Shown here in pieces: positions 789 through 3,209 of a DNA stretch of 64,000 nucleotides. A program made the translations under genes and the position numbers. Positions within the stretch are counted from its first letter, which is position 1; every line of letters starts with the position of its first letter. The notes below the pieces were generated by a model, which worked only from the letters and a program-made list of their open reading frames with translations, searched no databases and was not told where the DNA came from. Source of the stretch: Candidatus Zhuqueibacterota bacterium (GTDB taxonomy: Bacteria; Zhuqueibacterota; JdFR-76; DREG01); the NCBI GenBank assembly GCA_022566355.1, contig JADFJB010000006.1:67-64066 (forward strand), given 5' to 3'.

Positions 789-3209
789 TTGGAGGTTATT
801 ATCATGAGAACAAAAAATTGTTTCCGTATTCTTGCATTCATGCTGCTATTGATTTTGCCGGGACTTGTCCTGGGGCAGATTCCACAAACCATGAGTTACC
901 AGGGTGTCCTGACCAATCCGGAAGGTCGGGTGGTGGCTGACGGCATGTACACGATTACCTTCAATCTCTATACCGCTGCCAAAGGCGATCAGCGAATTTG
1001 GTCCGAGACCCAGACCATTGAAGTAAAGAATGGCCTATTCAATGTTGCTCTTGGCAGTGCGACCCCTCTGGATATTCCCTTTGACAAGCCGTATTGGCTC
1101 GCGGTAACCGTAGGCGACGGTTCAGAAGCAAGCGAGCGCATGCAACTCACCGCATCGGCCTACAGCTTACATGCACGTTCGGTGTCGGATAGCGCCATAA
1201 CCAGCAATAAGATTGCCAGCGGTCAGGTGGTCCGAAGCATCAACTCGATAACCGATGATATAAAACTGGTTCCAGGGGAGAATGTGACCATTACCCAGGA
1301 AGGGAAATCCCTTGTCATATCAGTGAATATCGATGGGAAAGGTGAAGGTAATATCGATTCGGAATCGGAAAGTTTATTGAAAAAAGCCAAACCCCCTAAA
1401 CTTAAAAAGGATTGGAAGACAGGAGGTAACGCGCTCACTGACCCGAACATTCATTTCCTGGGCACCACTGACGGTCAGCCTCTTGTTATCAGGACAGACA
1501 GCGTAGAGGTAGTGCGCATCGATGTAGCGGGTAACGTTGGCATCGGGACAGACATACCAACAGAGAACCTGGATGTCGCTGGTAAGGTGAGAATCCGTAC
1601 TGTTGATGCGGCTGCTTCTGTAAGTCCCAGTACAGAAGTTATAGTACTTGGTCCAAATAATGTGCTCGAATCGGAAGATGTTTTTACTCTCGCATTACAA
1701 GGACCCACCGGTCCTACTGGCGCGAAGGGCGATACAGGTGATGCGGGTGCGCAAGGTGCCACTGGCCCAACTGGCGCGAAGGGCGATACAGGTGACGCAG
1801 GTGCTGACGGAGCCACAGGTCCTACCGGTCCCACACCGGAGACGCAGGTGCTGACGGAGCCACAGGACCCACCGGAGACGCAGGTGATACCGGCGCCACG
1901 GGGCCCACTGGACCGACCGGACCTACAGGAGATGCAGGAGATACTGGGTCTATAGGACCTACTGGGCCAACTGGGCTCACAGGTGATACGGGTGCCACGG
2001 GGCCCTACTGGACCGACCGGACCCACTGGTGATACGGGCGATACTGGGCCTACAGGGCCTACCGGTCCCATTGGCGGAAGCGATGGAGAAGTCCTCTATA
2101 ACAACGGCGGCGTTGCGGCTGGTTCTAATATCTTTTTCGATGCCTCGAACAACCGAGTCGGCATCGGCACGACATCGCCAGATCCACGAGGTCTTCTACA
2201 TGTGCAGAAATCAAGTGGCCCCGGAGGCATTTTGATATCGAATAGTGGCACTACCAGTGGTGATCCTGCTGAGATAATTTTTACCAGGAACGCAACAGCC
2301 TTCAATATTCCTAACAGTGCGGCTATCGGTATGGCTCCCGGCAGAAATATGTTTATTCTTGTGAACGGGCAGGATAGGCTCAATATTGATACCTTTGGCA
2401 ACGTCGGCATCGGCACGCCGACTCCGGGAAGTAAACTTGTTGTGGTAAGTCCAGATGACAATGGCTCTACAGAGGTTGTCAAAGCAATCTCTAATAATGG
2501 AAATCAATCTACATCCCTTACTTTTACTGGTTTAAGGTCAAATATTGGTGCTGGTTTAGGATTTTCTACAAACGGATCAACATCTTTTTCCCTTTCTATT
2601 GATACCTTTGGCAACGTCGGCATCGGCACGATTAGTCCCCAGGATAAGTTGCAAGTAGAAGGAAACATAGCATTTCCAAATCAGAACGAGACCGCCAACT
2701 TTCACATTGGCAGGTGGGTAGGTTCGACCACCCCCGCTTCAACCAACAGGATCATCTTTGGTGGTGCCGGGGAGAACTCCCTGACCTTCCACACGCACCG
2801 GGCGGGAGTATCCAATCAGGATGCCATGCATATCGATGGTGTGGGCAACGTCGGCATCGGGACGCCGAACCCGAATTTCCCGTTGGAGATGGGCAGCGGC
2901 GCCCATGTGACAACCGGCGGCGTCTGGACCAATGCTTCTTCGCGGGAATACAAGGAAAACATACGGGACCTGACCATCGAAGAGGCCATGACCGCTCTGC
3001 GTGAGCTACAGCCGACGAGATTCAACTATAAAGTCGATAAAGAGGAAGAGTATGTGGGATTCATCGCCGAGGACGTACCCGAGTTGCTGGCGAGCAAGGA
3101 TCGAAAAGGGCTCAGTCCGATGGATATCGTAGCAGTGCTCACAAAGGTGGTTCAGGAACAACAGAAGAAGATAGAGGCGCTGGAGGCCAGGCTCAACGCT
3201 GGGCAATAG
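789..3209 (+). CDS. Collagen-like (GxT)n repeat, tail-fibre-like protein with C-terminal intramolecular-chaperone (endosialidase chaperone / peptidase S74) domain; reading frame interrupted at 1830-2000
   Basis: Signal peptide [25 protein letters not shown]. Long GPTGxxGDTGDAG collagen-like repeats run 1690-2080. The motif NVGIGT(x)P recurs five times. The C-terminus ([13 protein letters not shown]...[23 protein letters not shown]) matches the tail-fibre chaperone domain. ORFs 789..1955 and 1983..3209 are in the same frame. Between ~1833 and ~1997 the GxT reading continues only in the +2 frame, and the 0 frame holds a TAG at 1953. Confidence 0.6.

Follow-up and report, generated by a model that had tools for sequence, protein, structure and literature searches.

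A collagen-stalked surface-fibre gene from candidate division KSB1 that is probably a segregating pseudogene

The 64,000-nucleotide stretch analysed here (the window; contig JADFJB010000006.1 of assembly GCA_022566355.1, from an uncultured candidate division KSB1 bacterium, Candidatus Zhuqueibacterota) contains at positions 789–3209 a gene for a surface fibre with a collagen-like stalk, which is broken as sequenced by two small insertions within the collagen-coding repeat. The same insertions are present in other public assemblies, and the locus is probably a genuine segregating pseudogene, or an OFF allele, of a hypervariable surface-fibre gene that would have lost its function. The fibre is more like the mosaic adhesive trimer (MAT) fibres of Bdellovibrio than like a phage tail fibre, and its behaviour is already known for collagen-like surface genes, with no new mechanism involved. 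The analysis rests on assembled contigs.

Three-frame translation places the two long open reading frames (ORFs) of the gene, 789..1955 (first ATG at 804) and 1983..3209, in the same forward frame (frame 0). The collagen-like tract extends across the junction of the two and is the only one in the window.

804..1955 (+): ORF1, the only part translatable from the native start, encoding the signal peptide, the N-terminal domain, NVGIGT unit 1, 15 G-X-Y triplets and 39 out-of-frame residues
1701..2081 (+): collagen-like region of 41 G-X-Y triplets plus GGS, in three frame segments
1983..3209 (+): ORF2, the C-terminal 408 codons, in which the last collagen triplets are followed by the beta-helix modules and a Peptidase_S74 (S74) domain, without a signal peptide or conserved start

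Read as 9-nucleotide (nt) Gly-X-Y units, the tract is in frame 0 through units 1–15 (1701–1837), in a different frame through units 16–34 (1838–2009; 19 triplets, 57 codons, stop-free) and in frame 0 again through units 35–41 (2010–2072). A perfect run of 19 G-X-Y triplets in an ‘unused’ frame is far beyond chance. Exactly two of the 41 units are off-length, and the two indels lie 172 nt apart. The first (site f; 1827–1837, 11 nt) is GGTCCCACACC, or GGTCCCAC[AC]C, where units elsewhere (e.g. 1866) are GGTCCCACC or GGACCCACC; its two additional bases are an AC duplication at 1833–1836 (CCCAC[AC]C), such that ACAC stands where relatives carry AC, and the site is on the loop side of a small inverted repeat (CCGGT-CCC-ACCGG). 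The second (site h; 2000–2009, 10 nt) is GGGCCCTACT and has one additional base, either the T at 2006 (compare GGGCCCACT at 1901) or equally a G in the G run at 1999–2002, because allele L030 has the canonical GGCCCTACT at this position. A first-pass annotation made from the sequence alone had described the same structure: two ORFs in one frame, a stop-free collagen reading between them in another, insertions of 2 nt at ~1830 and 1 nt at ~1997, and a TAG at 1953 in frame 0.

That annotation also termed the two insertions compensating, and in terms of arithmetic they are, summing to +3 and returning the gene to frame 0 downstream. However, frame 0 across the middle segment encodes 39 out-of-frame residues ending in EILGL and then reaches TAG 1953–1955, which is the GSI triplet GGGTCTATAGGA read out of frame. 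Since this stop lies between both indels the compensation is non-functional, and the +1 insertion is found alone in two other alleles (L021 and L027). Translation from the native start would end at TAG 1953, yielding only a 383-residue N-terminal fragment and leaving the C-terminal 408 codons stranded without a signal peptide. ORF1 scores above the Pfam Collagen threshold (PF01391; 30.8 bits against 27.2), although as sequenced no single frame reads through the whole tract.

The same locus was recovered from ~10 further public assemblies of the same species (L016–L033), with flanking DNA 99.3–100% identical to the window. These loci were found through a 90%-identity cluster of the nearby metallophosphoesterase (18 proteins; ENA, Logan and NCBI) and through clusters of ORF1 and of the upstream neighbour, a protein with a type IX secretion system (T9SS) sorting domain. 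Other routes yielded little: homologue searches with the whole repaired protein were flooded by unrelated collagen proteins with nothing above 67% identity, N-terminal domain scans of GTDB genomes and JGI metagenomes returned only relatives of at most 66% identity, and exact look-ups with the window ORF1 and the T9SS neighbour returned no contig. The alleles are listed here with their collagen triplet numbers and frame-changing lesions (sites a to i).

Window: 41 triplets; +AC (f) and +1 (h)
L031 (SAMN16252656): 41 triplets in the same arrangement; f, h, +T at 1486 (a) and +CG at ~1784 (d2)
L030: triplets not counted; a, f and a different +1 (i, GGACC[C]GACC), with the canonical unit at site h
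L021 (GCA_022571655.1): 36 triplets; h only
L027 (SAMN16252689): partial; h only
L017: at least 34 triplets; –T (e) and an extra unit GGTCCC[C]ACC (g)
L022: at least 45 triplets; no break over the visible 1.76 kb (3′ part)
L032 (same sample as L022): partial; +G at 1545 (b)
L029 and P0257: partial; +G at ~1782 (d1)
L033 (SAMN17320299): partial; +A at ~1511 (c), plus a 1.5-kb deletion

The identical 10-nt unit at site h occurs in four haplotypes (window, L021, L027 and L031) and the site f insertion in three (window, L030 and L031), the latter being absent from L021, L022, L027 and L017. The carriers differ in sample, study and pipeline, and single-nucleotide polymorphisms (SNPs) set them apart (L021 and L027 are 99.66% identical); f and h occur together again in L031, and h is without f in L021 and L027. 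Because they recur in independent assemblies of other haplotypes, both window insertions are real and heritable. The +1 in GGGCCCTACT is common to several strains and hence not private to this assembly, and the window lineage has in addition the +2 AC duplication 170 nt upstream; heritable small insertions of this kind within the collagen-coding repeat have probably inactivated the fibre gene. Stops lie between the paired indels at corresponding places in L030 and L031 as well.

The gene varies in several other respects. Comparison of related genomes, proposed at first pass as a check, reveals variation in repeat number: collagen triplets differ in frame from 36 to at least 45 between alleles, and module number varies also, with beta-helix module sets of A, A-A, A-B or A-A-B according to strain, exchanged at identical 34-nt repeats. 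Recombination between in-register repeats would alter triplet and module numbers in this way without a change of frame. Between the window and L021 there are 25 SNPs within 1063–2988 and none in 2989–8300, a concentration that marks the gene as an island of recombination and diversity; dN/dS, the ratio of nonsynonymous to synonymous substitution rates, is ~1.1 for this pair, although the counts are small (14 nonsynonymous changes in 1352 sites and 4 synonymous in 430). A diversity-generating retroelement was considered and rejected, there being no reverse transcriptase among the scanned ORFs and the variation being indel and module based.

No recovered allele (~10 alleles) is demonstrably intact. 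There are 10 distinct small frameshifts, and L033 has in addition lost ~1.5 kb, such that the T9SS gene, the promoter and fibre codons 1–102 are gone and a PDDEXK_3/DinB_2/M28 peptidase region is fused directly to window position 1111 (L033:3300–3992). The first-pass statement that the gene otherwise looks functional thus holds for the window, but not across the population, where ten frameshifts and the 1.5-kb deletion damage every recovered allele. Many independent frameshifts together with one large deletion would in this way have disrupted all of the alleles, and the decay may reflect relaxed selection or selection for loss.

Two sets of observations weigh against a genuine segregating pseudogene, one of them technical and the other concerning the positions of the lesions. 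On the technical side, the break could be an artefact in which a G+C-rich repeat from a mixed-strain metagenome has given a chimeric or consensus-error contig while the gene in the cell is intact. The collagen tract is 66% G+C as compared with 40% for the genome and window, and most assemblies end at or within it. The window and L017 apparently derive from the same population, having an identical metallophosphoesterase (P0123), and differ in their collagen structures and shift sites. The evidence that the AC and +1 insertions share one molecule comes from contigs, in two cases (window and L031), and at their spacing a single short read cannot guarantee the linkage. Some singleton indels are close to contig ends (site e of L017, and the last 10 nt of L033) and could be errors, and sample SAMN16252656 (L028 and L031) is frameshift-rich in other genes too.

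Such an artefact is nevertheless rather unlikely. The exact AC insertion is present in two other assemblies and the exact +1 in three, across different samples, studies, pipelines and SNP-distinct haplotypes, and the pair is found again in L031. The first-pass annotation had offered collapsed or misassembled repeat sequence as one origin of the break, and the repeat structure does not bear this out. Repaired collagen sequences contain in-register exact repeats of up to 26–38 nt, which account for the differences in triplet number and the contig breaks, but exact repeats of at least 11 nt that are out of register are absent from the repaired tracts, and graph misjoins or collapse therefore cannot produce shifts of 1–2 nt. 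The alternative that it offered, genuine slippage in a hypervariable repeat, is supported both by the same insertions in independent haplotypes and by the hypervariable triplet number. There is no general frameshift problem in the window, where ~35 other ORFs have full-length Pfam matches (the exception being a TPR gene), and the 1.5-kb deletion allele and the shared TPR frameshift represent real decay in the region.

The TPR-repeat gene (5477–6060, –) is 2.5 kb from the fibre gene. It has a 2-nt deletion (GAGA to GA) at ~5743 in the window, L017, L018 and L021, and is intact (182–188 amino acids, aa) in L019, L022 and L028; the break is taken as genuine because the deletion is common to four assemblies. 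In the frameshift-rich sample, L028 has further frameshifts (+GC in the TPR gene at the equivalent of 5707, and –T in the metallophosphoesterase gene at the equivalent of 6991) and L031 has four in the fibre gene. Either the strain is frameshift-rich (perhaps a mutator) or the assembly is of lower quality.

The second set of observations concerns the lesions themselves. All 10 small frameshifts fall within 1486–2014 (529 of 2,406 nt), nine of them are insertions, in runs of 2–4 bases or as AC or CG duplications, and no nonsense substitution was seen. None falls in the aligned C-terminal sequence (7,950 nt) or in 730–1485 of five N-terminal alignments, and 70 kb of aligned flank contains three distinct frameshifting coding indels, two of which are in one frameshift-rich sample. 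Uniform pseudogene decay does not account for this clustering and insertion bias. Possible sources are a repeat-associated local indel hotspot, heteroduplex repair following recombination between diverged repeat units, and singleton contig errors; tandem duplications of 47 or 237 nt were rejected as a source of the shifts, those offsets merely containing the indels. The lesion-free C-terminal 1.2 kb (7.9 kb aligned) would also fit a gene that was recently or reversibly switched off. Finally, the visible part of L022 (the 3′ 1.76 kb, with 45 triplets and the complete C-terminus) stays in frame and L032 of the same sample is frameshifted 5′, and L022 counts as broken only if L032 is its 5′ half.

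These positions raise the question of ON/OFF switching of the contingency type, or of adaptive loss, in which the tract and its 5′ flank form a local indel hotspot that silences a liability fibre (e.g. a phage receptor, or a target of predators or grazers) and second-site indels sometimes restore the frame. In favour is the contrast between 10 frameshifts in 529 nt, none in 7.9 kb of C-terminal sequence and three in 70 kb of flank. Different haplotypes, moreover, have at least five independent first lesions, the domains outside the tract are undamaged, and the +2 insertion f is always paired with a downstream +1, for which there are two different partners (h or i). SclB of Streptococcus pyogenes provides a precedent, being switched by AACAA repeats (PMC10330708). 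Three of the four multi-lesion alleles (window, L031 and L017) sum to 0 mod 3, although this is not significant (p ~0.11) and the alleles share ancestry. However, the shift sites are runs of 2–4 nt or 1.5 dinucleotide units (ACAC/CGCG), not long simple-sequence repeats (SSRs), no ON allele was recovered among ~10, every ‘compensated’ allele has a stop between its paired indels such that nothing is restored, and a dN/dS of ~1 fits neutral decay equally. Switching or adaptive loss is therefore unlikely, and a specific form of it, with 1486–2014 as an insertion-biased, non-SSR contingency locus that repeatedly switches the fibre off while second-site +1 and +2 partners attempt to return it to ON, is a long shot; if true, a natural KSB1 population might switch the fibre in this way when phages or predators press on it.

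Two further readings would retain function without a change in the DNA. Programmed recoding would have ribosomes shift –1/+2 at CCC-ACA-CC and +1 at CCC-UAC-U so as to make a full-length fibre. CCC-N sites with tRNA-Pro in the P-site are intrinsically prone to +1 slippage, skipping the additional base gives perfect GPT triplets, and the alternative frame is stop-free for 57 codons. But site 1 has no X-XXY-YYZ heptamer, site 2 has no rare or stop codon in the A-site, and downstream RNA folds are no more stable than shuffled sequences (z of +0.70 and –0.53). Nor are the shift sites conserved: L021 and L027 are without the AC, L022 is without both, other alleles shift at eight other places, and a single frame encodes the homologues of other species. 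Recoding is highly improbable on these grounds. Reassignment of TAG was rejected separately, as TAG is an ordinary stop that ends 7 of 44 window genes including the fibre gene.

It is equally improbable that ORF1 and ORF2 are two separate functional genes, for a short secreted N-domain/collagen protein and an independent beta-helix/S74 protein. Gene callers do annotate two ORFs in L021 (393 and 327 aa), and truncated BclA N-terminal fragments may retain anchoring in Clostridioides difficile (PMC13188886). However, ORF2 is not an independent gene because it is without its own signal peptide and conserved start (GTG 1983 in the window, with the gene caller selecting another start for the 327-aa product of L021). 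There is no promoter-like site in 600–3500, the split point differs from allele to allele, and cross-species homologues are all single polypeptides. An embedded out-of-frame spacer was found in none of 120 collagen-bearing homologues screened. An antisense ORF of 198 aa (1475..2071, –) is a by-product of the G-X-Y repeat, encoding PVG/PVS repeats, and was not taken as a gene.

If the three additional bases are removed, the gene encodes an 801-aa protein. A signal peptide and an N-terminal domain come first, followed by NVGIGT unit 1 and the collagen stalk; beyond the stalk lie four more beta-helix units capped by (N)VGIGT, and an S74 domain forms the C-terminus. Its parts outside the collagen tract are as follows.

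804..875 (+): predicted signal peptide of 24 aa, assigned by inspection (basic n-region, hydrophobic core, and small residues before Q25)
876..1330 (+): conserved, probably beta-rich domain at the N-terminus with invariant columns in the homologue alignment, the hallmark of the fibre family
2384..2843 (+): beta-helix modules A (~2397–2609, 71 aa) and B (2610–2843, 78 aa)
2937..3089 (+): S74 intramolecular chaperone domain (Pfam; ORF2 residues 319–369 of 408)

The N-terminus including the predicted signal peptide is conserved in homologues P0001, P0002, P0005 and P0028. The N-terminal domain matches the NCBIfam model NF053851 (Bdello_MAT_N) with an E-value of 1e-5 and 25.4 bits, which is under the curated cut-off of 60, and the alignment joins residues 17–88 to profile positions 4–77 of 162. 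An AlphaFold2 model from an 18-sequence alignment is of low confidence (predicted local distance difference test, 47) and has strands at residues 30–115. The five (N)VGIGT units (at 1533, ~2150, 2400, 2613 and 2847) and the C-terminal chaperone are as the first-pass annotation had noted; the S74 domain (PF13884) is at the extreme C-terminus of ORF2 and scores 39.8 bits (E 5.7e-10; gathering cut-off 22). Modules A and B are edged by identical 34-nt repeats (2384–2417 and 2597–2630) encoding 11 aa. A putative autocleavage dyad lies in A-S-S-R-E-Y-K (2934–2954; Ser codons 2937–2942 and Lys codon 2952–2954), with Ser and Lys five residues apart and Ser in place of Asp, and it is kept in all alleles. 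The S74 chaperone of characterised relatives drives trimerisation and then cleaves itself off.

Among PDB sequences the C-terminal half matches solved Bdellovibrio MAT fibres by phmmer (Bd2133, 8ond, E 2.1e-7; and 8oml, E 2.1e-5), and there is a match to BclA (1wck). PHROG tail-fibre families match both the beta-helix/S74 part (E-values down to 3e-19) and the collagen part, and the NCBIfam SclB, SclA and Lcl models give sub-threshold matches. Intact single-frame homologues with the same architecture (including P0005, P0006, P0012 and P0021) are present at 40–67% identity in metagenome-assembled genomes (MAGs) of other KSB1, Calditrichota and Ignavibacteriales types. From these sequence features, the intact gene would encode a secreted trimeric cell-surface fibre, in which the N-terminal domain would serve as anchor and the collagen-like stalk would be triple-helical.

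The closest likeness is to the MAT fibres of Bdellovibrio bacteriovorus, in particular to the S74-terminated type such as Bd3182. In MAT proteins a signal peptide precedes a conserved, beta-rich N-domain of ~130 aa, the trimeric fibre is built of beta-helices, and the S74 domain carries SDxxxK (Caulton et al. 2024, PMC10769870). Both have a signal peptide (predicted in the KSB1 protein) followed by an N-domain, which in the KSB1 protein is probably beta-rich, a modular beta-helix fibre whose modules are exchanged between paralogues and alleles, and a C-terminal S74 chaperone with an S-x-x-x-x-K dyad, and the likeness includes the sequence matches to 8ond (Bd2133) and 8oml and the weak Bdello_MAT_N match. 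They differ in that the host here is a KSB1 bacterium, the N-domain at 25 bits is well under the family cut-off of 60, the dyad is SSREYK rather than SDxxxK, and the gene is frameshifted; the fibre has moreover a 41-triplet collagen-like stalk, the word ‘collagen’ being absent from the MAT paper (PMC10769870).

Phage tail fibres and tailspikes (the K1F endosialidase type, and collagen-like tail fibres) have the same S74 domain, and the PHROG matches arise through these shared modules. Unlike them, the fibre here has a predicted signal peptide and a bacterial fibre N-domain and is in no phage context. BclA of Bacillus and C. difficile and Scl1/Scl2 of S. pyogenes are similar in having G-X-T-rich triplets in strain-variable numbers. 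The bclA genes of C. difficile are frequently pseudogenised, with low-abundance or unique alleles struck in the collagen-like region (PMC13188886), and SclB is switched by frameshifting repeats (PMC10330708). The KSB1 gene differs in the lack of an LPXTG anchor, a C1q-like BclA C-domain or an exosporium context, and its frameshifts lie in short runs, inside the collagen tract or a little upstream of it, where a dedicated pentanucleotide repeat close to the start would be the other pattern. Repeat-coding DNA tolerates changes of frame, and frameshifts that leave an alternative frame open have been described in protein tandem repeats (Osmanli et al., FEBS J 2025, PMC12871928); here, in contrast, the translated alternative frame contains a stop, so there is no alternative full-length product.

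The genomic context is bacterial. NCBI labels the gene a ‘tail fiber domain-containing protein’, and the first-pass description as tail-fibre type is apt at the level of domains, but this is a chromosomal bacterial surface-fibre gene, MAT-like and not part of a phage. There are no phage structural or lysis genes near it among ~45 ORFs scanned in the window. The neighbours are chromosomal (a T9SS-sorted protein, toxin-antitoxin-like pairs, a metallophosphoesterase, an epimerase, fabH, pdxJ, dus and others), and their synteny is conserved across more than 10 assemblies. The upstream neighbour is as follows.

181..729 (+): MCH8124755.1 (candidate division KSB1 bacterium), a small protein that ends in a T9SS sorting domain

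Elsewhere in the window, at 31173–34568, a Sortilin/BNR-repeat protein is encoded together with a PorV-like outer-membrane protein; they indicate a type IX secretion context, which fits the T9SS-sorted neighbour. Window positions 1–246 are unrelated in sequence to L021, including the signal-peptide part of the T9SS protein (182-aa and 184-aa forms); since the window and L021 are unrelated upstream of 247, a recombination or island boundary lies at the left end of the window. Immediately beyond the TAG stop of the fibre gene and in the same frame is a 57-aa ORF (3264–3437), which contains a 21-nt tandem duplication (insertion point 3374) in L021 and L027. The metallophosphoesterase gene (6595–8319, –) varies in copy number of an ATGCTA hexanucleotide at ~8100–8105, giving 549-, 551- and 553-aa forms, and an intergenic poly-C tract downstream of it (6548–6550) varies in length by –3 to +1 between assemblies. 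Toxin-antitoxin-like pairs are located at 4049–4539 (–; a 105-aa DUF433 protein and a 58-aa partner) and at 61070–62483 (+; a HigB-like toxin and an HTH_3/Peptidase_M78 protein), and ~3 kb at 57050–60100 contains few long ORFs. Rfam and tRNA scans of the whole window returned zero matches, and the promoter and terminator scan gave nothing useful.

A frame break in a collagen-like repeat of a MAG need not be an assembly error, and here it holds against independent public assemblies. ‘Compensating’ frameshifts need to be checked for intervening stops before rescue is inferred. Of the features described, only the clustering of insertions within 529 nt would perhaps repay study at the level of reads. 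The locus adds candidate division KSB1 to the groups with MAT-like, S74-terminated fibres, here with a collagen stalk, and documents strong within-species polymorphism and decay, in triplet number, module number, frameshifts and a deletion, the pattern expected for exposed surface structures.

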